This document shows, one piece after another, positions 9,698 through 49,228 of a stretch of DNA of 64,000 nucleotides. The notes under the pieces were generated by a model. That model searched no databases, was not told the DNA's origin, and saw only the letters and a list, made by a program, of their open reading frames with translations. The position numbers and the translations under genes are program-made. The DNA comes from Acidimicrobiales bacterium (GTDB taxonomy: Bacteria > Actinomycetota > Acidimicrobiia > Acidimicrobiales > Bin134): contig OZ242355.1 in the NCBI GenBank assembly GCA_965208805.1, forward strand, positions 3,194,906 to 3,258,905. Reading direction: 5' to 3'. Position 1 is the first letter of the stretch; each line of letters begins with the position of its first letter.

Positions 9698-10693
9698 TCA
9701 GAAGCGTAGTTCAGGTGACAAATAAGTGTCCCTGACCCGATCCCCAAACTCGGGCCGAGTGAGTGCGTCGGGCCCGTCGGGCACCGCAACGCCCCGCTGA
9801 GCACAGTCCTCGGCCAGCGTGGCAATCAGGGTCGCCTCGTCGAGGTCGTCCAGGTGTTCGTCGTACACCTCGGCCTCGTGGGCGTCGTCAAACACGAAGG
9901 CCTTCCACGACAGCGACACCCGCACCTCGCCGAAGGCATGGACCACCGTCTCATGGCTGGGCTCTTCGATTAGCCACTGTCGATCGGGGGTGAGCGTGAT
10001 GGTGGCGTCGAATCCGTACTTGGCGTAGTCGGTCTCGGTGCCGATGGACTCAACCCGATGGGGCATGTAGTCGTTGTCGCCCATTACGCCGTAGTTGTAG
10101 GGGGGATCCACCGTCACCAGATCACCGTCCCAACCTTCGGGCCAGTAGGTGAACTCCCCGCCGACGCCCTCGTAGTACCAGCACACCGCGGTGGCGATCC
10201 GCACCCGCCAGCGGTCGAAGCACCCCGAGTGCATCATGCAATTGAGCAGCCAGGTGGGGTACTCATCCCGGCCGACCCCCCGAAAGGACGGGATATCGGT
10301 GTGGCGGGCGTACTGGCCGCTGGGAGCGTTGATATTCACGTAAGTGAAATAAGGCCGCACCACCTCAGCGCTGTACAACTGCCGGGCGGCTTTGATGAAC
10401 CGGGGGTTGTTGACGATGGTGTCGGCCCCCTCCACAGCCTGCTCCTCGGCTCCCCACGTCGTTCGAAACACCGGCGGGATCCGGGGCTCGCCGTCGACCA
10501 CATCGACGAACGGGGGGACGTCGCCGGTGCGGGCCCCGGCTCGCAGGGCAGCTCGACTCTCCACGAACTCGGCGCCGGCCAGAGTCAGCGGATGGGGTGA
10601 CTGTCGCTGCAAGATGCCCAGCAGCACATCAGGGCTCTCCAGTGACTGCTCCATGATGACCGGCGGCCGGGGCAGCGTCGTTGTGCGCATCAC
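9698..10693 (-). CDS. hypothetical protein, possible cupin/2-His-1-carboxylate oxygenase fold
   Basis: 331-aa ORF with coding-like composition. Contains HTD (HxD) and a later His (MPHRV), a possible facial triad. No firm family recognition. Divergent from the UGSC gene. Confidence 0.45.
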   Translation of the reverse strand: MMRTTTLPRPPVIMEQSLESPDVLLGILQRQSPHPLTLAGAEFVESRAALRAGARTGDVPPFVDVVDGEPRIPPVFRTTWGAEEQAVEGADTIVNNPRFIKAARQLYSAEVVRPYFTYVNINAPSGQYARHTDIPSFRGVGRDEYPTWLLNCMMHSGCFDRWRVRIATAVCWYYEGVGGEFTYWPEGWDGDLVTVDPPYNYGVMGDNDYMPHRVESIGTETDYAKYGFDATITLTPDRQWLIEEPSHETVVHAFGEVRVSLSWKAFVFDDAHEAEVYDEHLDDLDEATLIATLAEDCAQRGVAVPDGPDALTRPEFGDRVRDTYLSPELRF

Positions 10694-10768: not shown

Positions 10769-11308
10769 ATGGAAACCACCACCATCTTGTTGCCCACCGG
10801 CGAGGTGAACGAGCCATCTCAACCGCTGGCCATCCGCAAGGACTCGCTGGCCGGAGCGGTGGTGGGCATCATTGACAACGACATGTGGCGATCCATGGCC
10901 ATCATGGCCGACGAGCTGTCCCACCGGCTCGTGGACCAGGCCGGGGCGGCTGGAGTGGTGGTTCGAGCCAGCGGCCCGATGCACGGTGCCGATCCCGAGC
11001 AGTATCAGCAGGAGATGGAGGCCTTCCACGCCGAAGTCGACGCGGTGATCAGCGGCTTGGGCAATTGAGGCTCGTGTACGGCGTGGTGTATCCACGCCAG
11101 CAGCACGCTGGAGGCCATGGGAACTCCGGCAGTGGGCTTGGTAACCGAGCAGTTCCGGGGCCTGGCCGAGGCCACCGCCCGGGGCCTGCGGGTGGACAAC
11201 CAGCCGTTGATCGTGTTGCCGTCGGGCTACGACGAGTGGTCTGAGGATGACATCAGGGCCGACATCGCATCCCGTCTCGACGAAATTGTGGATGCGCTAG
11301 TGGCATGA
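10769..11308 (+). CDS. UGSC-motif (seleno)protein candidate; in-frame TGA 11066-11068 read as Sec
   Basis: Track ORFs 10769..11068 and 11117..11308 share a frame (348 nt apart), and the only intervening stop is TGA. Read-through gives GLGN-U-GSCTAWC (TGA GGC TCG TGT). GGAGGA lies 6 nt before ATG 10769, and a stem-loop starts 5-11 nt after the TGA. Confidence 0.7.
11073..11107 (+). promoter_or_regulatory. candidate bacterial SECIS stem-loop
   Basis: GGCGTGG(11080-86)-TGTAT-CCACGCC(11092-98) is a perfect 7-bp stem. It is extended by CGTG(11073-76)/CACG(11104-07) across an internal loop and starts immediately 3' of the TGA at 11066. Confidence 0.45.
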
Positions 11309-11348: not shown

Positions 11349-12395
11349 ATGACCCAGCAAGTTGACATCGACGGCGGAGTCGACGAGGTAGAGGCCTACC
11401 TGCGAGAGCGGGGCATGACCGACGGGCTGCCGGTTATTCCCCCAACCCCCGAGCGGGTGGCCGCTGCGGTGGCTGCCTCCGGGCTGTCGGCCGACCACGT
11501 GGTGAGCGACGTGCCCCCGTTGAACGCGCCGGCCACGGTGGAGAAGATCGCGGTCAACGCGGTGATGGCCGGCTGCTCGCCTGATGCGATGCCGGTGCTC
11601 ATCGCCGCCATTGACGCCTTCTGCGATCCGCAGATGAACGCCCACGGGGTGCAGACCACCACCAACCCGGTAGGTCCGATGCTGGTGGTGAACGGCCCGA
11701 TCCGCAATCGGCTGAGCTTCAACTACGGCGCGGGATGCTTCGGGCCAGGATCGCACACCAACGCCACCGTGGGGCGAGCGATGCGGCTGGCCCTGGTGAA
11801 CATCGGTGGGGCCATTCCTGGCGAGGTGGACAAGGCGCCCCTGGGCTGGCCCGGCAAGGCCACCTCGCTGTGCATGGCCGAGAACGAAGAAGCCTCCCCG
11901 TGGCCGCCCTACCACGTCGACATGGGGTTCGATGCCGACGACGATGTGGTCACCGTGCTGGCTGTGAACGGGATGTGGCCCATAACCGATATGCACCACG
12001 AGCCCGACCAAGTGCTGCACCACGTGACCAACGGCCTGGCGATCAGCGGGCCGTGCGGGGGTCACGATGCCCCCAACCCCTTCCCGACCGTGCTGGTGAT
12101 GAGCCCGGTTATCGCCGATATGGTGGCCAGCCTTCTGCCCACCAAGCAGGAACTGCAAGAGCATCTTTTCGCCGAAGCCCGAGTGCCGCTGGACTTCTAC
12201 CCTCCCTATAGGCGCCAGCCCACCAGAGACGTGCTGGAGCAGTTGGGGGTGGCCATTGAGAACGACCGGGTGCCGATCGTTCCCTCTCCCGACTACTTCG
12301 TGATCCTGGTAGCCGGGGGTGCAGGCGGGCTCCAATCGGCGGGGTTGTCGTGCATGTTGGGCATGCCCACCAGCCGGGCAGTGCCTGCTGGTTAG
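11349..12395 (+). CDS. conserved hypothetical protein (MTDGLPVIPPT motif)
   Basis: 348-aa ORF directly downstream of the UGSC gene, same strand, 40-nt gap, with coding-like codon usage. Family not recognised with confidence. Confidence 0.6.
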   Translation: MTQQVDIDGGVDEVEAYLRERGMTDGLPVIPPTPERVAAAVAASGLSADHVVSDVPPLNAPATVEKIAVNAVMAGCSPDAMPVLIAAIDAFCDPQMNAHGVQTTTNPVGPMLVVNGPIRNRLSFNYGAGCFGPGSHTNATVGRAMRLALVNIGGAIPGEVDKAPLGWPGKATSLCMAENEEASPWPPYHVDMGFDADDDVVTVLAVNGMWPITDMHHEPDQVLHHVTNGLAISGPCGGHDAPNPFPTVLVMSPVIADMVASLLPTKQELQEHLFAEARVPLDFYPPYRRQPTRDVLEQLGVAIENDRVPIVPSPDYFVILVAGGAGGLQSAGLSCMLGMPTSRAVPAG

Positions 12396-18358: not shown

Positions 18359-18365
18359 AACGCAG

Positions 18366-18438
18366 CACCCCGTACGGGATTCGAACCCGTGTTACCAGAT
18401 TGAGAATCTGGCGTCCTAGGCCTCTAGACGAACGGGGC
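18366..18438 (-). tRNA. tRNA-Glu (anticodon CUC)
   Basis: Minus strand GCCCCGTTCGTCTAGAGGCCTAGGACGCCAGATTCTCAATCTGGTAACACGGGTTCGAATCCCGTACGGGGTG. Cloverleaf with anticodon stem CCAGA/TCTGG, loop TTCTCAA, T-arm GGGTTCGAATCCC. No encoded CCA. Confidence 0.85.
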
Positions 18439-18488: not shown

Positions 18489-19556
18489 CTACGGCCGGGC
18501 TTGGTAGATGATGTTGGCGTTGGTCTCGGTGACCCGCTCGAAGCTGGAGTATCCCGCGGCGGTGAAGACCTCTCGCATGGCGGCTTCGCCAGCTTGTGCA
18601 CCCATTCCCAGGCCGACCGGCTGGGCCAGAGAACACGGGACTCAAAACACGGCCGACGCCCCATACGACGTGGCCGCCATGGGGTTCTCGGTCAGGTTGC
18701 GGACGTGGCCGTCGAGCGCGAAGGGCTCCACCATGAGCACCGAGCCGCCCTCGGCCAGCTGGCTGCGGGCGTGGGTGGCGATGCCCACCGGATCGCCCAT
18801 GTCGTGGAGGCAGTCGAAGAAGAAGATCACGTCGTAGGCGCCCTGGTAACCCTTGGAGTCGGCCACTTCGAACGAGGCGTTGGGGAGCCCAGCGTTGGCG
18901 GCCAGTTCTCTGGCCTGGTCGATGGACGGGCCGTGGAAGTCGAACCCGGTGAAGTGCGACTCGGGGTAGGCCGAGGCCAGGATCTGCACCGAGTCGCCGC
19001 AGCCGCAGCCCACATCGGCGGCGGTGGCTCCGGACCGGAGCTTCTCGTCGATGCCATCGGCGGCGGGAATCCACTCGTTGGCCAAGTACATCTCGTACTG
19101 GGGCCGGAAGAAGCGGGCGGTGGAGGTGAACAAGCTGGGGTGGTGATCACCCCACGCCAAACCGCCGTCGCCCCGGAAAGCACTGAGGATGTCGTCCATG
19201 TCGGAGAACATGGCCCGAAACATGCCGATGCCCCCGGCCAAGAATGCGGGGCTCACCTCCCAGGCCAGCACCGCAGCGGCCTCATCGGTCAACTGAAACG
19301 TGACGTCGTCGTCGCTCTGGCCACCAATCTCGACCAACTCGACCGCGGCCTGCTGGCGCAGCCACTCGGTAACCAAGCGAGGATGGCAGCCGACAGCTAC
19401 GGCCAAGGATTCCGCAGTAATCGGCCCCGCCCCCGCCATGGCCTGATATAGGCCCAGCTCGTCGCCGATGTGGACCATGGCAATGGTGGTGGCCCCGGCC
19501 ATGTGGGTGGCCACCTCACCAGCCAGCTCGGTTACCCGATCGATGTCGATGTCCAT
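18489..19556 (-). CDS. SAM-dependent methyltransferase, candidate selenoprotein (in-frame TGA 18642-18644) or nonsense pseudogene
   Basis: The track ORF stops at TGA 18642-44, but the same frame continues 50 codons to TAG 18489-91. The extension VPCSLAQPVGLGMGAQAGEAAMREVFTAAGYSSFERVTETNANIIYQARP looks like the conserved C-terminus of this family. I recall Cys at the TGA position in homologues. A GGUC-loop hairpin lies 16 nt downstream. Confidence 0.55.
18607..18625 (-). promoter_or_regulatory. candidate bacterial SECIS stem-loop
   Basis: Minus strand CCCAGCC-GGUC-GGC(C)CUGGG: a 7-bp stem with one bulged C and a GGUC apical loop, beginning 16 nt 3' of the UGA. Confidence 0.4.
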
Positions 19557-19613
19557 GTCAGTTCCTTCGCGGTGATGTACCGGCTGGAACTCTAGGCGGT
19601 TGGGTTACATGGA

Positions 19614-20474
19614 CTAGCGGTTGGTGGTGCGGCGCTTCCAACCGGCGGCGCCAATGTTGCCGCCGTCCACATGGATGGTGGAGCCGGTCACGAATCGGGA
19701 CATGTCCCCGGCCAGATACACGATCGCGGCGGCACAATCGTGAACTGAGCCGCCTTCCAACCACGGCTGGGGGGCCAACTGGGACCTCTCATCGGTGCTC
19801 TCGTCGCCCAGCATGCGCTCGCCCTCGGTGGGGATCACATCGGGGGCGATGCAGTTGACCCGGATACCGGCCGGCGCCAACTCCAACGACAGGCTCATGG
19901 TCAGGTTGGCCTGAGCCGCCTTCATCGCCGAGTAGATGGAGAAGCCGGGACCGGCCCGATGGGCCTCGATAGAGGTGATATTGATGATCGACCCGCCCTC
20001 GCTCATCAACGGAATGCACCCTCGGATGAACCCGGTGACCTGGGTGAAGTTCTCGGCGATCAGCGCGGCCTCGCCCTTGAGGTTGATGTCGGCGAACGGG
20101 GAGTTGAACGTACCGCCCGCGTTGTTCACCAGCACGTCCACCCGTCCGTAGGCCTCGCCCACCTCGGCCAGCCAGGCATCGCGGGGCTCGGGGTGGCGGA
20201 CGTCGAACAGCCCGGTCAAACAGCGGCGGCCCAGCGCTTCCACTGCGGCGGCGGTGCGGGCCATATCGTCGGCCTCCCGGTCGCAGATGGCCAGATCAGC
20301 GCCGAACCTAGCTAGGGCCACCGCGGTGGCCGCCCCGATCCCCCGAGCGGCGCCGGTGACGATGGCCACCTTGTCGGTGAGCAGCACGCTGGACGGATCC
20401 AACACGTTGTCATCGCTCCAAATGGGAGGCTTGTCGCTCTCGAGGCCGCCCAAAGTCCATTCCCAATCGGTCAT
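19614..20474 (-). CDS. SDR family oxidoreductase
   Basis: KVAIVTGAARGIG, NNAG, YSAMK motifs. Extra roughly 35-aa N-terminal extension. Confidence 0.85.
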   Translation of the reverse strand: MTDWEWTLGGLESDKPPIWSDDNVLDPSSVLLTDKVAIVTGAARGIGAATAVALARFGADLAICDREADDMARTAAAVEALGRRCLTGLFDVRHPEPRDAWLAEVGEAYGRVDVLVNNAGGTFNSPFADINLKGEAALIAENFTQVTGFIRGCIPLMSEGGSIINITSIEAHRAGPGFSIYSAMKAAQANLTMSLSLELAPAGIRVNCIAPDVIPTEGERMLGDESTDERSQLAPQPWLEGGSVHDCAAAIVYLAGDMSRFVTGSTIHVDGGNIGAAGWKRRTTNR

Positions 20475-21196
20475 ACCCCTACTCCTACCGCAGAGCCGAT
20501 TCCAAATGTGATAGCGGCCGCCGCAGCGGCAATGACCAACTGGCGAAGCGAACCCCGCACGATCGACCGGTCGGTGGCCAGAGCCAGCGCACCGCCCACC
20601 AGTACCGCGCCCACAACCCCGAGCAGGATCGACCCCACGATGGCGCCGTTACCGCCGGTGAAGAACCAGGGCAAAAGCGGCAGCACCGCCCCGATGGCGA
20701 AGGCAATGAACGAGGATGTTGCCGCGAACACCGGGTTGCCCAGTTCGTTGGGATCGATGCCCATCTCCTCCCGGGCGTGGACCTCCAGTGCCTTCTCCGG
20801 ATCTTCCATGATGTTGGTGGCCATCTCCCTTGCCGTGTCCGGGTCCACCCCACGGGATTCGTAGATCTCGGCCAGCTCCTCTACCTCGTGCTCCGGGTTG
20901 CGGGCGTGCTCTCGCCGCTCCATCTCCAGCTCCCGCTCCAACAGCTCCCGTTGGGCCTGCATGGAGATGTATTCCCCCGCGGCCATCGATACCGCTCCGG
21001 CAATGAGGCCCGCCAAACCGGCAATTCGCACCAGCTCTTGGTCCGAACTGGCCCCAGCCACGCCCAATATGAGAGCCACGTTGGACACCAGGCCATCGCT
21101 CACCCCGAATACCGCCGCCCGGTACCCGCCCCGGGTCACATTGCGGTGATGCCCTTCTCCGAGATGCCCCGAGCCGCTGGGCTTTCTTGCGAACAC
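20471..21196 (-). CDS. VIT1/CCC1 family iron/manganese transporter
   Basis: GGYRAAVFGVSDGLVSNVALILGVAGA, a central EMERRE-type cytosolic helix, and C-terminal TM helices. Confidence 0.8.
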   Translation of the reverse strand: MFARKPSGSGHLGEGHHRNVTRGGYRAAVFGVSDGLVSNVALILGVAGASSDQELVRIAGLAGLIAGAVSMAAGEYISMQAQRELLERELEMERREHARNPEHEVEELAEIYESRGVDPDTAREMATNIMEDPEKALEVHAREEMGIDPNELGNPVFAATSSFIAFAIGAVLPLLPWFFTGGNGAIVGSILLGVVGAVLVGGALALATDRSIVRGSLRQLVIAAAAAAITFGIGSAVGVGV

Positions 21197-40332: not shown

Positions 40333-40409
40333 GTCAGCCCCTTCGTCACACCAAACCCAATGTCACGTCAGCCCCTTCGTCACACCAAACCCAATGTCAC
40401 GTCAGCCCC
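40328..40409. repeat. perfect 34-bp tandem repeat (2.4 copies) at the moaA stop / moaC start junction
   Basis: Unit gtcacgtcagccccttcgtcacaccaaacccaat at 40328-61 and 40362-95, partial copy at 40396-409. Each copy carries GGGGCTGACGTGAC on the minus strand (stop TGA + GTG). Confidence 0.9.
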
Positions 40410-41472
40410 CGATCTGGGACATCGAGCGGCCAGGGCGGATGAAGTGCACTTGGTTGATGGCGTGTCCGGCCCACTTGTCCTTCACCACATCGGAGATGAC
40501 GGTGGCGATCTCGTCGTCGCTCGCTCCCGAGCGCAGCAACTCCCTGAGATCGTGCTCGTCCACGGCGAACAGGCAGTTGCGGAACATGCCCTCGGCGGTG
40601 AGACGCACCCGGTCACAGCTTCCGCAGAAGGCGTCGGTAACGCTGGCGATCACCCCGAACGAACCCTGCCCGTCGGCGTAGTGCCATACCGCGGCCGGCG
40701 AGTGGGAGCGCTCCACCGGGGCCAGCGGGAATGCCTCGCCCACTGTGGAAACGATCTCGTCGAGAGTGACCACCTTGTCGTTGCTCCACGACAGGTCGGC
40801 GTCTAGGGGCATGAACTCGATGAACCGGACCTCTACACCTTTGTCCCGACCGAATCGGGCGAAGTCCACGATCTCGTCGTCGTTGATGCCCCGCATCATC
40901 ACCGCGTTGACCTTCACCGGACTCAAACCGGCGGTCAAGGCGGCGTCGATCCCGTCGAGCACCCGGTCCAAGTCGTTGCGCCGGGTGAGCTGCTCGAACC
41001 GGTCGGCCTGGAGGGAGTCGAGCGAGATGTTGATGCGCCGCAGTCCAGCCGCAACCAGCTTGTCGGCCAAGAGGCCCAAAGTGGCGCCGTTGGTGGTGAG
41101 GGCCAAATCGACGCCCAACGCGGCCAGCTTCTCCACCAGCACCGGTAGGTTGGCCCGCACGGTGGGTTCGCCGCCGGTGAGCCGGATGCTGTCGATGCCG
41201 AACCGATCGACCATGAGGGCGGCAATGCGCTCGATCTCCTCGAAGGTGAGGAGGTCCTCCCGAGGCAGCCAGTCGAGCCCGTCGGCGGGCATGCAGTACG
41301 TGCAGCGGAAGTTGCAGCGGTCGGTCACCGAAATGCGCAGATCCCGGTGGACCCGCCCGAAACCGTCGATCAGCGCCACGCTCACTCCCCCATTCTGTCC
41401 GAATAACTCGGCAAACACATGGTGGAATCCATTCTGGCCGAATAAGCGGCCGAACACACTGTGGAAAGCCAA
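40402..41472 (-). CDS. moaA: GTP 3',8-cyclase
   Basis: Radical-SAM CNFRCTYCMP, GGEPTVR, and a C-terminal GxxxxxG tail. The true start may be a GTG near 41385 (VSVALIDGFGRVHRDLRISVTDRC). The track start adds a 2 x 13-aa repeat extension. Confidence 0.9.
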   Translation of the reverse strand: MAFHSVFGRLFGQNGFHHVFAELFGQNGGVSVALIDGFGRVHRDLRISVTDRCNFRCTYCMPADGLDWLPREDLLTFEEIERIAALMVDRFGIDSIRLTGGEPTVRANLPVLVEKLAALGVDLALTTNGATLGLLADKLVAAGLRRINISLDSLQADRFEQLTRRNDLDRVLDGIDAALTAGLSPVKVNAVMMRGINDDEIVDFARFGRDKGVEVRFIEFMPLDADLSWSNDKVVTLDEIVSTVGEAFPLAPVERSHSPAAVWHYADGQGSFGVIASVTDAFCGSCDRVRLTAEGMFRNCLFAVDEHDLRELLRSGASDDEIATVISDVVKDKWAGHAINQVHFIRPGRSMSQIGG

Positions 41473-41494
41473 ACCGGCTTCGTTGGGGCTATAG

Positions 41495-42700
41495 CTAGCG
41501 CAGGATCAAAAGCGACACCGGGTCACCCTCATCGAGCCCGTCGCCGTCGGGCAATACGGCCAAGGCATCGGCTGCGGCCATTGCTGACAGCTGATGTGAT
41601 CCCTGACCCCCGGCCGATCGGGCCAAGAACTCGCCGTCGGCGTAGTCCACTCGCACCCGGGCGAAGTGGGTCTTGCCATCGGGTCGGCGGCCCAGTCGCT
41701 CGGCGACGCACCCCCTCACCGGCTGGCGATGCCAGCTGCCAGGAGGATGGCCCATCATCTTGCGCAGACCAGGGCGGGCGAACAGCTCGAATGACACCAT
41801 GGATGACACCGGGTTGCCGGGCAGACCGAACACCGGGACGCCCTCGACCAGGCCGAAGGCCAGGGGTTTGGCCGGTTTGATGGCCACCTGCATCCAGGAC
41901 ATGTCGCCGATCTCGTCGAGGACCTTCTTCACGTAGTCGTAGTCGCCCATGCTCACCCCGCCCGAGGTCAAAAGGGCGTCGCATTTCTCCACTCCGGCCC
42001 GAAGGCCAGCGGAAATCTCTTCCTCGTTATCGGCCATGCTTCCTAAGTCCACCGGATCGCATCCGGCCTCAGCCAGCAGAGCCAACAGAGTGTGCCGGTT
42101 GGAATCGCGGATTTGGCCCCTCTCCAGCGGCTGTGGCCCCTCCACCAACTCGTCGCCGGTGGACATGACCCCGACTCGAGCCTTTGGCCGCACCTTGACC
42201 TGGTACATGCCGAGGCTGGTGAGCACCCCCAAGTGCCCCGGGGTGAGCACCTCTCCCGGACCGAATACCGTCTGGCCCACCGTCAGATCCTCGCCGGCCC
42301 GGCGGATGTGGTTGCCCACGGGCACCGATTGGGCCACGGTCACCTCGGTGCCGTCGGCGCTGGTCTCGGTCAGCTCCACCATCACCACCGCGTCTGCGCC
42401 GGGGGGAATGACGGCACCGGTCATGATGCGGGCAGCCTGTCCGGCACCCACCGTGATGTCGGGCGGCACCCCCGCGGCAATCGTGCCCGCGACGGCCAAA
42501 CTCACCGGCGCATCGGCCACATCGGCCGACCGAACCGCGAAGCCGTCCATCGCCGTGTTGTCGAACGGGGGCACCAACTCGGGCGCCACCACTGTTTCGG
42601 TGGTCACCAAGCCCTGTGCGTCGCCAACGGCCACGGTGACCTCGTCCAGGATGCCACACCCGGCCAGCACCCGCTCCTGAGCCTCAGTCAGTGGGATCAT
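41495..42700 (-). CDS. moeA: molybdopterin molybdotransferase
   Basis: MIPLTEAQERVL start at 42700, overlapping the plsY stop (TGATG). MoeA N-terminal, MoCF and C-terminal regions (SGGVSMGDYDYV, PGNPVSS). Confidence 0.85.
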   Translation of the reverse strand: MIPLTEAQERVLAGCGILDEVTVAVGDAQGLVTTETVVAPELVPPFDNTAMDGFAVRSADVADAPVSLAVAGTIAAGVPPDITVGAGQAARIMTGAVIPPGADAVVMVELTETSADGTEVTVAQSVPVGNHIRRAGEDLTVGQTVFGPGEVLTPGHLGVLTSLGMYQVKVRPKARVGVMSTGDELVEGPQPLERGQIRDSNRHTLLALLAEAGCDPVDLGSMADNEEEISAGLRAGVEKCDALLTSGGVSMGDYDYVKKVLDEIGDMSWMQVAIKPAKPLAFGLVEGVPVFGLPGNPVSSMVSFELFARPGLRKMMGHPPGSWHRQPVRGCVAERLGRRPDGKTHFARVRVDYADGEFLARSAGGQGSHQLSAMAAADALAVLPDGDGLDEGDPVSLLILR

Positions 42701-43329
42701 CACCAAAGCGCCGGTTCTTCTCGCTTCCACATACGACGAATGTTCTCATGGTGGCGGGCAAGAACCACCACTGCAACCCCGATCACCACCAAGACCTCCG
42801 GTGCTGGCCAGCCCTGAATGGCCACTGCGGCCGGCGCGGCCGCCACCGCCACCAACGAGGCCGCCCCAGCTCGCTTGGTTACGGCCAGAGCCACCGCCCA
42901 GACGCCGATGAGGATCACCCCCACCACCGGGGTAAGGGCCAGAAGCATCCCCCCGAAGGTGGCTACCCCCTTGCCTCCTTCGCGGTAACGCCCCAGCGGC
43001 ACGATGTGGCCCACTACGGCCGCCGCTCCGCACGCCGCCCCCACCAATTGATCTGCGAATATCAGGCCGATCCCAGCAGCAATGAACCCCTTTCCCACAT
43101 CGCTGAGCAGCACCCAAGCGGCTGGCCACCGCCCCGCCACCCGATACACGTTGCTGGCCCCCGGGTTCTTGGACCCCTCCCGAGTCGGATCGTGCCCCGT
43201 ATACCTCCCCACCAACAGCGCGCCAGGAAACGTCCCCCACAAATACCCAACCAGGACCAAAACCCATTCCCAGTCCACCCGCCCATCGTAGTGAAACAGA
43301 CCAGAACCCCTCAGATAGCCAAAAAACAA
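42700..43329 (-). CDS. plsY: glycerol-3-phosphate acyltransferase PlsY
   Basis: GSKNPGASNVYRVAG signature, multi-TM. The true start may be GTG 43278. Confidence 0.8.
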   Translation of the reverse strand: MFFGYLRGSGLFHYDGRVDWEWVLVLVGYLWGTFPGALLVGRYTGHDPTREGSKNPGASNVYRVAGRWPAAWVLLSDVGKGFIAAGIGLIFADQLVGAACGAAAVVGHIVPLGRYREGGKGVATFGGMLLALTPVVGVILIGVWAVALAVTKRAGAASLVAVAAAPAAVAIQGWPAPEVLVVIGVAVVVLARHHENIRRMWKREEPALW

Positions 43330-45289: not shown

Positions 45290-46770
45290 TTTACGTTGTT
45301 GGGTGGCCTCTGGCGTGGGAGTGTTGGGGGCTGGTTGCTCGCCGCGGCGGGTAGGGCTTTGTCCCCCTGTCGTTTGAGGGCTCGGGGGGTGGTGCCGCCC
45401 GCTGCGGGGGGCGTCTGGGACCTCTGACAGGGACGTGTCCGCGGGTTCGGCCCGCAGGGCTTTGCAAAGAGTGGTTGAGGCGCAGGCGCCTGGGGCTTCC
45501 GAGTTGTTTGTTCCCGGACCTGGAGGGCCCGACATGCCACAGACCGATCACGCGGCCGGCGAGGTGTTCGTCGGCATCGACGTCGCCAAGGCGGACCATT
45601 GGGCGCACGCGGTGGCCGCGGGCGGCAAGGAGTTGTTCTCGCGGGCGGTGGCCAACGATGAGGCCGCTATCGACGCTTTGATTGACGAGGCGACCGGCTG
45701 TGGTGCTGTGGTGCTGGTCATCGACCAGACGGGGTCGGCGGCGTTGTTGCTGTTGGAGGCGGCGGCGAACAGGGGCGTGCCGGTGGCCTATGTGCCGGGG
45801 CTGGTGATGCGCCGGGCCGCGGATCTGTACGCGGGGGCGGCCAAGACCGACCCCAAGGACGCGTTCGTGTTGGCCGACTACGCCAGCCGCAACTCCGACC
45901 GGCTCCAGCGGGCTGCGCCCGCCGACGAGCTGCTGGCGCGGCTGAGGGTGCTCAACGGGCGAGACGCCGATCTGGCCGCCGACGCCACCCGGGCCTCCAA
46001 CCGGCTCAGGGACGCCTTGTTGGCCGTATGCCCGCCGCTGGAGCGGGCGGTGGGAGACCACCTCGCCGCCACCGCCGGGCTGCGCCAGGCCCTCGTGCGC
46101 TGGCCGACGCCGACCGCGCTCCACCGGGCGGGAAGAGCCCGCATCCGGACCGCGATCGCCCGGCGCAACCCCCGCAAAGCCGAATCCCTCGCCGACGCGA
46201 TCTGCGCGGCGCTCAAATCCCAGACCATCACCGTGGCCGCCGAGGCCTCCTGGGGCGAGGCCATCGCAGACCTCGCCTCGGACCTGGACCGCATCGCAGC
46301 CCGCCGCCGCCAGCTCCAAGGAGACATCGAGGAAGCGTTCATGGAACACCCGCTGGGAAAAGCCCTGTCCACAATGTGCGGGTTCGGCCCCCGAACCGGC
46401 GCCCGCGCCCTCGCTGAGATCGGCGACCCCCACCGCTTCGACAACGGATCACGCCTCGCCTCCTACGCCGGGCTCGCCCCCGTCGACTCCCAATCAGGCC
46501 GCAGCCACACCACCCGGGCCAGCCGCCGCCACAACCACCGGCTCAAAAACGCCATGTTCCAAGCCGCCTTCACCGCCTACCGATACGACCCCCACGCCGC
46601 CGCCTACTACCGGAAAAAACGGGCAGAAGGCAAAAAGCACAACCAAGCCATCACCGCCCTCGCCCGCAAACGCTGCAACATCGTACTCGCCATCCTCAAA
46701 ACCCAAACCCCCTACCAACCCCCCCACACCGAAAACCTGCCCCAAGCGGCTTGACAACACCACAGGGACA
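45290..46770 (+). mobile_element. IS110-family insertion sequence (boundaries approximate)
   Basis: Transposase 45534..46754 with a 244-nt non-coding left end and only 16 nt after the stop. The element is bracketed by C-runs. No inverted repeats, as expected for IS110. Confidence 0.6.
45534..46754 (+). CDS. IS110 family transposase/recombinase
   Basis: ATG 45534 after GGAGGG. VFVGIDVAKADHWAHAV (DEDD N-terminal domain) and C-terminal GFGPRTGARALAEIGDPHRFDNGSRLASYAGLAPVDSQSG. Confidence 0.85.
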   Translation: MPQTDHAAGEVFVGIDVAKADHWAHAVAAGGKELFSRAVANDEAAIDALIDEATGCGAVVLVIDQTGSAALLLLEAAANRGVPVAYVPGLVMRRAADLYAGAAKTDPKDAFVLADYASRNSDRLQRAAPADELLARLRVLNGRDADLAADATRASNRLRDALLAVCPPLERAVGDHLAATAGLRQALVRWPTPTALHRAGRARIRTAIARRNPRKAESLADAICAALKSQTITVAAEASWGEAIADLASDLDRIAARRRQLQGDIEEAFMEHPLGKALSTMCGFGPRTGARALAEIGDPHRFDNGSRLASYAGLAPVDSQSGRSHTTRASRRHNHRLKNAMFQAAFTAYRYDPHAAAYYRKKRAEGKKHNQAITALARKRCNIVLAILKTQTPYQPPHTENLPQAA

Positions 46771-47491: not shown

Positions 47492-47866
47492 TTAGCCAGC
47501 CCTACGTACCCGTCGCCAAAACCCGGCGAATCGCCCATCGGCCGCCCGGTCCTCATCACCCAGCATATCCTTCAACTGCTCCTTCCAAGCCAAGTCCCGA
47601 TCCCGATCACGCAACACCTGCTCCCAACCACCTACCCGAAACGCCAACACCGCCCCGGCCATGAAGGCAGCCTGGCTCGCAACAAGGGCAAAGACGGCTA
47701 TACCAACACCCAATAGGAACCATGCCAAAGCGAAGTCTCCGTACGTTACGACCCCGACCGCTACAGGCACTACCACCACGACCCAGAACAGGCCAAACAG
47801 GTGTCGGATCCAGTTGCGTCTGCGGTCTGTCAGTTTTTTTGTGTAACCGGCCGTGATGGTTTTCAT
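47492..47866 (-). CDS. membrane-protein fragment; first 14 codons supplied by the IS256 end (possible C-terminal piece of the disrupted surface protein)
   Basis: ATG 47866-64 overlaps the IS256 transposase stop (ATGA). Codons 1-14 lie inside the IS (>=47824). The rest encodes TM-like LFGLFWVVVVVPVAVGVVTYGDFALAWFLLGVGIAVFALVASQAAFMAGAVLAF. Confidence 0.4.
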   Translation of the reverse strand: MKTITAGYTKKLTDRRRNWIRHLFGLFWVVVVVPVAVGVVTYGDFALAWFLLGVGIAVFALVASQAAFMAGAVLAFRVGGWEQVLRDRDRDLAWKEQLKDMLGDEDRAADGRFAGFWRRVRRAG

Positions 47867-49228
47867 TTGATGTGGTCGGCGATCCTGTCGCCGTAGTGGA
47901 CGGTCAGTGTGTTCAGTATGGTCTTCCAGCCGTTGGTCTTGCCGGTGAGGTTGCTCCGGTTCTTGTGCTTGGCGGTTGCGACAAGGTAGAGGATCTTCAT
48001 GGCGGCCTGCTCGTTGGGGAAGTGGCCTCGGTGGCGCACGGCTCGTCGGAATCTGGCGTTGAGGCTCTCGACGGCGTTGGTGGTGTAGACCACCCGGCGC
48101 AGCTCGGCGGGGAACTCCAAAAACGGTGTGAACTCGTTCCAGGACTGCCGCCAGGAGCGGATCATGGCCGGGTAGGTGTCCTCCCAGTCTTGGGCGAACG
48201 CCTCGAAGAGCGTCTCGGCGGCCTCTGTTGTGGGGGCGGTGCAGATCTCCCGCATGGACTTGGTTATGGGCCCCCAGTGCGTCTTGGAGGCGTAGCGCAG
48301 GCTGTTGCGGACCATGTGCACCACGCAGGTCTGCACCACAGCCTCGGGCCAGGTCACGCGGATCGACTCGGGCAGGCCCCGCAGCCCGTCGCAGCACACG
48401 ATCAAAGCGTCGGCCAGGCCCCGGTTCCGGAGCTCGCCCAGCATGGCCGCCCACTGCTTGGCGCCCTCGCCGCCCGTTGGTCCCAGCCACAGGCCCAAAA
48501 CATCGCGCTCTCCGGCCAGATCCACGCCTATGGCCACGTAAACGGGCCGGTTGGCGACCTGCGAGTCGCGGACCTTGACGGTGATCGCGTCGATCAAAAG
48601 CACCGCATAGACCGGCTCTAGGGGCCGGTTCTGCCACACGGCCATGTCGGCCACGATCTCGTCGGTGATCTTCGAGATCGTCTCCCGGCTCACCGACGTG
48701 TCGTAGATCTCTTCCAGGTGCGCCTGGATCTCCCCGGTGGTCAGCCCCTTCGCATACAGCGAGATCACGTTGCCCGACAGCCCGTCCAAGCGGCGCTGGT
48801 GCTTGGGAACCGTGACGGGCTCGAACGTGCCCGCCCGGTCGCGCGGCACCCGCAGATCGACCTCGCCGATCTCGGTGGTGACCCGCTTGGGCGACGAGCC
48901 GTTGCGCGAGTTCCCCGACCCGCGGCCCTCCGGAGCGTGGCGCTCATAGCCCAGGTGGTCGGCCATCTCGACCTCCAACCCGGTCTGCAGCACCTGGCGC
49001 ACCAGCCCCGTCAACAGGCCGCCGTCGCCGGTCAGCTCCACCCCCTCAGAGCGGGCGCGCTCCACCAGAAGCTCGGCCCAGTCCTGCATCGCCGCCTCAC
49101 CGGCGACCTCGTTGCTCGCCGGCGCAGCCGGCACATTCTGATCAGTCACAGACATGATCCTCCCCGGCCCGCAACACCAAACCGCGGACCCTCAGATCAC
49201 GCCCGATACACAAAATTCCTGACAGACC
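47824..49228 (-). mobile_element. IS256-family insertion sequence, 1405 bp
   Basis: Terminal inverted repeats GGTCTGTCAGTTTTTTTGTGT (47824-44) and the reverse complement of 49208-28, GGTCTGTCAGGAATTTTGTGT (18/21 identical). Single transposase gene. No target-site duplication seen (flanks gcgtctgc vs cctcggtc). Confidence 0.85.
47863..49155 (-). CDS. IS256 (mutator) family transposase
   Basis: 430 aa. CCDGLRGLPESIRVTWPEAVVQTCVVHMVRNSLRY and NAVESLNARFRRAVRHRGHFPNEQAAMKILYL are family signatures. Confidence 0.9.
   Translation of the reverse strand: MSVTDQNVPAAPASNEVAGEAAMQDWAELLVERARSEGVELTGDGGLLTGLVRQVLQTGLEVEMADHLGYERHAPEGRGSGNSRNGSSPKRVTTEIGEVDLRVPRDRAGTFEPVTVPKHQRRLDGLSGNVISLYAKGLTTGEIQAHLEEIYDTSVSRETISKITDEIVADMAVWQNRPLEPVYAVLLIDAITVKVRDSQVANRPVYVAIGVDLAGERDVLGLWLGPTGGEGAKQWAAMLGELRNRGLADALIVCCDGLRGLPESIRVTWPEAVVQTCVVHMVRNSLRYASKTHWGPITKSMREICTAPTTEAAETLFEAFAQDWEDTYPAMIRSWRQSWNEFTPFLEFPAELRRVVYTTNAVESLNARFRRAVRHRGHFPNEQAAMKILYLVATAKHKNRSNLTGKTNGWKTILNTLTVHYGDRIADHIK

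Follow-up and report, generated by a model that had tools for sequence, protein, structure and literature searches.

Does the TGA codon at positions 18642-44 of an Acidimicrobiales contig end a methyltransferase gene, or is it translated as part of a longer protein? The DNA considered here (hereafter, the window) is a 64,000-nucleotide stretch of contig OZ242355.1 (assembly GCA_965208805.1), and the gene lies on its reverse strand. The open reading frame (ORF) of the annotated type (18642..19556) starts from an ATG at 19554-19556, contains 304 codons, and ends ...NPMAATSYGASAVF at this TGA. Past the TGA, the zero frame stays open for another 50 codons, VPCSLAQPVGLGMGAQAGEAAMREVFTAAGYSSFERVTETNANIIYQARP, until a TAG at 18489-91. 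We favor, with a probability of about 0.88, the reading that the UGA is decoded as selenocysteine (Sec), residue 305 of 355, as directed by a selenocysteine insertion sequence (SECIS); the context of this residue in the read-through product would be ...SAVF-U-VPCSLAQPVGLGMGAQAGEAAMR. The UGA would be recoded co-translationally, with a GC-rich stem-loop 16 nt downstream (GGUC loop) acting as a bacterial SECIS (bSECIS) that recruits SelB with Sec-tRNA(Sec), and translation would then run on through the last 50 codons, adding part of a helix, a further helix, and the last two strands of the beta sheet. Judged by the strong purifying selection on them, the codons after the UGA are translated; we infer that Sec is the inserted residue and that the hairpin is the element bound by SelB. 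Of the 45 predicted genes in the window, 28 end in TGA, more than in any other stop codon; this rules out a genome-wide reassignment of UGA, and decoding at 18642-44 must depend on a local signal.

The strongest evidence comes from the alignment column that holds the TGA, for which we compared 172 homologous loci from species-representative genomes, metagenomes, and assemblies. Every locus with a sense codon in this column encodes Cys (158 of 158, from many phyla), TGA occupies it in the other 14, and no other state occurs. All 14 TGA loci belong to a single clade (100% bootstrap) of sponge-associated Acidimicrobiia (Candidatus Poriferisocius, 'Sva0996', and related metagenome-assembled genomes). 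Ten distinct TGA-type DNAs have the TGA at the same codon (the window, L001, L002, L003, L005, L161, L162, L166, L168, and L172), and they include three complete or near-complete chromosomes; complete genomes with the TGA form are, for example, NZ_OZ241977.1, NZ_OZ244793.1, and the 3,144,089-bp contig of ERZ25068043, whereas OZ246892.1 has the Cys form. The four closest Cys-type orthologues (L004, L006, L170, and L171) have TGC at this codon, and full-length Cys-type orthologues are 354-380 aa long with 77-89% identity to the methyltransferase. A metagenome scan for further Sec-type loci returned only homologues of at most 56% identity, all of them with Cys.

Not only was the 50-codon extension free of stops and indels in all ten TGA-type sequences, but its pooled ratio of non-synonymous to synonymous changes (pN/pS) was 0.086, compared to 0.163 in the 100 codons before the TGA. 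Synonymous divergence within the extension of the TGA forms reaches about 1, and the window differs from L172 in this segment by 20 synonymous and no non-synonymous changes. The same pattern holds for the 12 codons that separate the TGA from the next ATG on its 3' side (pN/pS: 0.085; variable sites at codon positions 1/2/3: 4/1/10), where the conserved family residues P307, S309, L310, and Q312 are encoded. That ten sequences retain a TGA at the position of an invariant Cys and conserve the frame after it goes far beyond chance. The codon directly before the TGA also differs by type: the Phe codon is TTT in all ten Sec-type and TTC in all four Cys-type sequences, and TTT makes up 13% of the Phe codons among the predicted genes of the window.

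To which family the product belongs was determined from profile, sequence, and structure comparisons. A Pfam scan found HTH_65 (PF21320) at 31.8 bits (cut-off 24.1) and Methyltransf_31 at 60.9 bits (cut-off 27), with Methyltransf_12/25/23/11 likewise above their cut-offs and a match to PF13649. Using phmmer, the product matched the solved structures of TnmJ (PDB 8G5S; E 6.8e-40), aligned over query residues 5-355, i.e., through the last residue of the extension, and Rv2258c of M. tuberculosis (5f8c; E 1.9e-38), aligned over query residues 21-345. As a structural proxy we used the AlphaFold model of a full-length Cys-type orthologue (P0001; 89% identity), which has a predicted local distance difference test (pLDDT) score of 88.8; Foldseek superposed this model on 8g5s and 5f8c/e/f with template modeling (TM) scores of 0.85-0.88, and the next fold neighbors were natural-product O-, N-, C-, and S-methyltransferases. 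Past position 305, the model shows the end of helix 294-310, followed by a further helix (323-333) and by two beta strands (338-344 and 348-354). Since the residues after 305 form this terminal helix and two strands, a 304-residue product is predicted to be without part of the core sheet. The product is thus a predicted 355-residue S-adenosylmethionine (SAM)-dependent small-molecule methyltransferase of the Rv2258c/TnmJ fold.

Rv2258c (PDB 5F8C, 5F8E, 5F8F) and TnmJ (8G5S) share the two-domain architecture and the fold of the methyltransferase, whereas their sequence identity to it (28-30%) places them in a different subfamily, and neither is a selenoprotein. At the Sec column, Rv2258c also has Cys (...MHCMTVSLA...) and TnmJ has Ser. 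Invariant residues in a 37-sequence alignment include H138, H139, C184, D248, C249, H251, D252, E277, C305, P307, and Q312; the HH, DC-LHD, and CxP residues, invariant in the methyltransferase subfamily, are kept only in part by Rv2258c and TnmJ. The subfamily consensus around the TGA column reads YTASxxxCTPNSLSQEVGLGLG. We also considered a likeness between C-x-P-x-S-L-S-Q-E and the catalytic SCNPATLARD of the m5U RNA methyltransferases (RumA/TrmA) and rejected it: hhalign aligned the SAM-binding region alone (probability 36%), and the catalytic Cys389 of RlmD directly follows strand beta5, whereas the Cys of the methyltransferase lies 28 residues after beta5, a mismatch in topology with the m5U enzymes.

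These results bear on most of what a first-pass annotation, made from the letters of the window, had proposed. It had described the 304-aa ORF with its TGA end and the 50-codon open frame to the TAG, and both were found again on re-reading the sequence. Its remembered homologue motif, S-T-x-x-C-x-P-x-SLAQ-x-x-G with the TGA at the Cys, turned out to be essentially correct, given the consensus above, the Cys in all sense-codon loci, and the TGC of the nearest orthologues. The extension, which it took for the normal C-terminus of the family, does align to the end of TnmJ and to Rv2258c through query residue 345, and the comparison of selection across relatives that it had proposed for the post-TGA segment gave the low pN/pS reported above. 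The opposite view that it had entertained, a single TGC/TGT to TGA nonsense mutation, is contradicted by the presence of TGA in ten distinct sequences on at least three branches of the clade tree.

The candidate signal for recoding is the hairpin downstream of the UGA. Sixteen nucleotides past the UGA, the mRNA reads CCCAGCC-GGUC-GGCCUGGG (in full, CCCAGCCGGUCGGCCUGGG; 18625-18607), and ViennaRNA folds this segment into 5 bp, a bulged C, 2 bp, and the GGUC loop, which confirms the one-bulge hairpin noted in the first-pass annotation. The published bSECIS model describes a loop of 3-9 nt, a stem of 4-16 bp, a G within the first two loop positions, mostly with G or U after it, and a UGA-loop distance of 16-37 nt (PMC13188914). 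The hairpins of the clade lie within all of these limits (loop: GGUC, or GUC/GUG in relatives; stem: 7-8 bp; spacing: 23-24 nt). Among nine distinct SECIS-region sequences of Sec-type orthologues, five form a perfect 8-bp stem (CCCARCCC-GUS-GGGYUGGG), and one stem pair is G-C in five, A-U in three, G-U in one, and mismatched in none; the stem is retained through an exchange of CAG/CUG for CAA/UUG, and the combination CAA/CUG was never seen. The E. coli fdhF-type SECIS and the bSECISearch consensus are similar in being stem-loops inside the coding sequence right after the UGA, with a small apical loop that opens with G and then G or U. There is no sequence similarity to the fdhF-type element beyond the loop, and the stem of the methyltransferase hairpin differs from it in being dictated by the peptide AQPVGLG and, in the variant of the window, in having a bulged C.

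Several observations weigh against a Sec reading of the UGA or against the hairpin as its signal. The covariation amounts to one compensatory pair only, and the observed covariation score was reached by 24 of 500 column shuffles. The hairpin energy is no better than that of dinucleotide shuffles (z-scores: -1.16, 0.18, and 0.16), the hairpin of the window ranks at the 49th percentile when LAQPVGLGM is re-encoded synonymously with the codon usage of the window, and no Rfam SECIS model matched at the gathering threshold, nor did any when E was relaxed to 10. Most of the hairpin is kept by the four Cys-type orthologues. The second Cys of U-x-x-C varies: L168/169 have Ser in its place, and outgroup sequences have N, A, S, G, or C, mostly one of the first four. 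Lastly, scans with ARAGORN, with Rfam, and, for 37 ORFs, with Pfam found no tRNA-Sec, selA, selB, or selD within the 64-kb window, whose only tRNAs according to ARAGORN and Rfam are tRNA-Glu and tRNA-Ala.

The lack of excess stability over synonymous encodings comes from the peptide A-Q-P-V-G-L-G, whose codons form a palindrome by themselves (GCC CAR CCN GUN GGN YUG GGN). The question therefore shifts from codons to residues, and here the clade stands apart: the mean local minimum free energy (MFE) at the hairpin position is -13.5 kcal/mol in the Sec/Cys clade, which reads QPVGL, compared to -6.6 kcal/mol in 154 Cys-only outgroup genes, which mostly read QEVGL or QDVGL and of which 11 reach the MFE of the window. 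The difference of about 7 kcal/mol is due to a clade-specific Glu-to-Pro change (QEVGL to QPVGL), by which the stem arose in the lineage where Sec appears. We regard the hairpin as a probable SECIS on positional and comparative rather than thermodynamic grounds. Accordingly, the likeness to a bSECIS that had been suggested from the sequence holds for the published values of loop, stem, G position, and spacing, and does not extend to the energy, which is no stronger than the peptide dictates. An RNAalifold consensus adds a possible lower stem, the pairs of which (columns 9-14 with 42-47) are broken in several sequences.

Indirect evidence on Sec decoding comes from a second gene of the window. 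The first-pass annotation had pointed to another selenoprotein candidate about 7 kb away, and this candidate is real: it is a probable UGSC-family gene with a TGA at 11066-68. Its translation reads ...GLGN-U-GSCTAW..., and gene callers end the product at 99 aa. The NCBIfam model NF041046 matches it over profile positions 2-146 of 147 (E 2.4e-23; 82.8 bits, below the cut-off of 125), and its relatives have precomputed PF24696 (UGSC) matches. All 12 close protein clusters stop exactly at GLGN, and distant homologues read GLGNCGSC. The TGA is retained in three other genomes, followed by 79-83 conserved codons, and the stem-loop after it is identical in all four genomes compared, with one variable base in the first 41 nt after the UGA. 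As in the methyltransferase, a TGA thus occupies a Cys column and is followed by a conserved frame and a hairpin. The UGSC gene (NF041046, PF24696) differs in encoding a small unrelated protein, likely of a thioredoxin-like fold, and in a hairpin whose nucleotides are fixed even at synonymous sites, where that of the methyltransferase drifts; its nucleotide-level constraint is much the stronger. In Global Ocean Sampling (GOS) data, the established UGSC family comprises 255 Sec and 21 Cys forms (PMC2398784).

The presence of this conserved, probable selenoprotein gene in the same window suggests that the lineage decodes Sec. UGSC genes are also recorded on contigs of 3,573,138, 3,447,695, and 3,144,089 bp, sizes that equal those of contigs with TGA-type methyltransferases. 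SelA and SelB were reported as enriched in sponge-symbiont genomes (Slaby et al. 2017, PMC5649159), and Table S4 of that study lists, for bin134, SelA 0, SelB 0, and SelD 1. This bin, only about 90% complete, is the genome of the Cys-type methyltransferase L006 (MPNQ01000017.1), and its profile fits the use of Cys where the Sec trait is missing. According to the records, a 3,037,168-bp contig combines the Cys-type methyltransferase P0005 with the TGA-type UGSC gene P0131, so reversion to Cys in the methyltransferase does not need loss of the Sec trait. Within the clade, Sec use thus seems to differ from gene to gene and from genome to genome.

Two further features of the recoded genes were observed. 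A rare U-ending codon stands 5' of both UGAs, TTT at 18645-18647 (-) and AAT at 11063-11065 (+); AAT accounts for 14.5% of the Asn codons in the window, and all ten methyltransferase and all four UGSC sequences show the U-ending pattern. The U before the UGA may be a context preference for Sec insertion. The UGSC gene is flanked by two ORFs without Pfam matches (9698-10693 (-) and 11349-12395 (+), about 330 and 348 aa), of which the product of 11349-12395 (+), the one flank scanned, had no NCBIfam match. ORFs of matching size and orientation flank UGSC in L174, L175, and L176, and the three genes could form a conserved unit.

Four other explanations of the TGA have to be weighed. Public gene calls end at the codon, giving proteins of 304 or 311 aa (the split is seen at L161, L162, L166, L167, and L172, and in proteins P0006-P0013), and in a single genome one TGC-to-TGA change would produce the same picture; a nonsense pseudogene, or a natural 304-aa protein followed by a decaying remnant, would account for both. 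We consider this very unlikely given ten distinct TGA sequences, with the synonymous divergence described above and an extension that is intact and under purifying selection, in orthologues that were drawn from separate samples, diverge at many positions, and are thus not copies of one assembly; a truncated product would, moreover, be without helix 323-333 and the last two beta strands. Hardly more credible is a split gene, in which ribosomes stop at the UGA and re-initiate at the ATG 36 nt downstream to make a separate 38-aa peptide. In several assemblies a 38-aa ORF is indeed called at that ATG, yet the 12 intervening codons evolve like coding sequence in the upstream frame and encode family-conserved residues. 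The calls in the ENA, Logan, JGI, and NCBI records are better explained as annotation error; NCBI gives the name 'methyltransferase domain-containing protein' both to a truncated TGA form (P0013, 311 aa) and to the full-length Cys form P0005.

A programmed +1 frameshift past the stop at GUG-UUU-UGA, as in prfB, draws on the UUUU that precedes GA in all Sec-type sequences and that resembles a slippery P-site codon before a stop. It can be set aside almost entirely, because the family alignment, which a frameshift would destroy, stays in the zero frame and places exactly one residue, the invariant Cys, opposite the TGA. The remaining alternative accepts read-through and changes the residue: Cys could be inserted by a selC-like tRNA-Cys with SelB and the SECIS, or Trp or Cys by near-cognate suppression. 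Recoding of UGA as Cys through selC-like tRNAs has been suggested in certain bacteria, the comparative evidence speaks for translation of the codon and not for the identity of the residue, and the Sec machinery was not seen within the window. Even so, we judge a residue other than Sec improbable, since the window and its relatives carry the conserved-TGA gene of a family dominated by Sec forms, an inserted Cys would be served by the TGC of sister lineages without the cost of recoding, and Trp is implausible at an invariant Cys column. Insertion of Sec is, in our view, what best explains the codon.

How Sec and Cys came to alternate within the clade can be read in part from a neighbor-joining tree, in which the two forms are interleaved. 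The Sec-type L005 branches first, the Sec-type L168 groups weakly with the Cys-type P0005 and L170, and a Cys group forms the sister of the main Sec group, which has 75% bootstrap; deep nodes have 37-42% support. The interleaving requires at least two or three Sec/Cys switches. Since the Cys forms still have the Pro and most of the stem, the pattern is compatible with a Sec ancestor and later reversions to Cys.

What residue 305 does is less clear-cut. His251 (FDCLHD) and Glu277 (VEP) stand where this fold family has its catalytic His and a bracketing Glu, and C305, S309, and Q312 share one face of helix 294-310. Most tentatively of all that we propose, residue 305 might line the methyl-acceptor pocket near His251 and Glu277, as a nucleophile or as a ligand for a soft substrate. 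The U-x-P-C of the window resembles a redox motif, but because its fourth position is unconserved, CxxC-type redox chemistry cannot be the core role of the family; within the clade, the second Cys of U-x-P-C may act as a local selenol partner. A bolder proposal, which we consider rather doubtful, would combine a catalytic nucleophile or soft-ligand role of Cys305 (e.g., for a metalloid or thiol-reactive acceptor, together with C184 and C249) with a SECIS born of the Glu-to-Pro change that allowed repeated Sec/Cys switching in one genus. If it were true, the Cys305-to-Sec exchange in sponge symbionts would mark an unrecognized chemistry for small-molecule SAM methyltransferases. Gene neighborhoods of distant homologues gave no clue to the substrate, the biggest neighbor cluster covering 10 of about 150 loci.

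Comparison with known selenoproteins places the gene outside the described families. A May-2026 inventory lists 119 prokaryotic selenoprotein families, the methyltransferase-type entries of which are an arsenite methyltransferase with two fusions and a methylated-DNA-protein-cysteine methyltransferase; it further lists MduS (PF13649, CxxU, two Sec; sequence WP_332845911.1) and a methyltransferase/UXPK-star double selenoprotein (PMC13188914). An Rv2258c-like winged-helix-turn-helix (winged-HTH) methyltransferase has no entry among these 119 families (PMC13188914). NCBIfam release 20 has no specific model for the methyltransferase either: NF047649, the model of the methyltransferase/UXPK-star protein, reached 20.2 bits (cut-off 460) over the SAM-binding motif only, and ArsM (NF008823) was not among the matches at E up to 0.01. 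The Sec-containing ArsM, experimentally verified according to Table 1 of the inventory (PMC13188914), is similar in being a class I SAM enzyme in which a conserved Cys of the active region is replaced by UGA-encoded Sec while Cys orthologues form the majority; it differs in its Sec motif (UxxG), its known substrate, and the lack of an Rv2258c-like winged-HTH. MduS and the UXPK-star protein are, as here, selenoproteins with a methyltransferase domain, and MduS differs in its described motif and number of Sec, compared to the one Sec near the C-terminus, in U-x-P-C/S, of the methyltransferase. The fold of PF01035 is unrelated.

The gene therefore very probably represents an uncatalogued family of genuine selenoproteins, judging from these comparisons, and the mechanism itself would be the ordinary bacterial one. 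It would add to the May-2026 inventory and to NCBIfam a selenoprotein family that both lack, and the Sec site points to one invariant Cys as functionally critical in a widespread methyltransferase subfamily, with members in Pseudomonas, Acidobacteriota, Actinomycetota, and numerous further groups. With its closely related Sec and Cys forms, the clade is a natural system for studying what an enzyme gains from Sec, and the hairpin is a candidate for a coding-region SECIS written at the amino-acid level.

Features of the window that relate to the two proposed selenoprotein genes and to the genes 5' of the methyltransferase (positions are those of the window).
Feature	Position	Strand	Basis or remarks
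Methyltransferase, full coding sequence (predicted)	18489..19556	-	355 codons + TAG stop; winged-HTH N-domain (Rv2258c-like) + class I SAM methyltransferase domain
GAAGGA, hexamer resembling a ribosome-binding site	19563..19568	-	Read from sequence; 6 nt 5' of ATG 19554-19556
In-frame TGA, proposed Sec305 codon	18642..18644	-	Cys/TGA alignment column
50 codons 3' of the TGA	18492..18641	-	Rest of helix 294-310, helix 323-333, last two beta strands
TTT (Phe) codon, directly 5' of the TGA	18645..18647	-	Orthologue comparison
Stem-loop CCCAG-CC-GGUC-GG-(C)-CUGGG, proposed apical bSECIS	18607..18625	-	Folding; loop start 23 nt after UGA
Possible extended lower stem	18598..18636	-	RNAalifold consensus, columns 9-14 with 42-47; G-U rich, weakly supported
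Short-chain dehydrogenase (SDR), 5' neighbor	19614-20474	-	Pfam
VIT1-family transporter, 5' neighbor	20471-21196	-	Pfam
Probable UGSC-family gene, proposed second selenoprotein gene	10769..11308	+	TGA 11066-68; ~7.5 kb from methyltransferase
UGSC hairpin GGCGUGG-UGUAU-CCACGCC	11080..11098	+	Folding; loop start 18 nt after UGA

Upstream of the methyltransferase, the gene order VIT1-SDR-methyltransferase is also found in the relatives L161-163, L170, L171, and L168/169, with an amidohydrolase inserted within it in L168/169. The VIT1 transporter and the short-chain dehydrogenase (19614..21196) may form one operon with the methyltransferase. On the 3' side, a tRNA-Glu(CUC) gene (18365-18438, -) lies 50 nt beyond the TAG stop, and the region varies among relatives, which have a phage-type integrase (L170) or PIN, MazE, or DUF433 modules (L162, L163, and L171). 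This variation suggests an integration hotspot.

Elsewhere in the window, molybdenum-related genes have no link to the methyltransferase finding: 30323-32110 (-) encodes a 595-aa protein with a molybdopterin-oxidoreductase domain, and 40402-42730 (-) contains molybdenum-cofactor biosynthesis genes for a MoaA-like radical SAM protein and MoeA. An IS110-family transposase (45435-46754, +) lies close to a Mutator-family transposase (47863-49155, -). In the region 54028-59767, third-position GC is atypically low, and two repeat proteins are encoded: one of 913 aa with RCC1 repeats (54028-56769, -) and one of 1052 aa in which fibronectin type III repeats occur at least five times (56609-59767, +). 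Sponge symbionts commonly have such eukaryote-like repeat proteins, and this region was possibly acquired horizontally.

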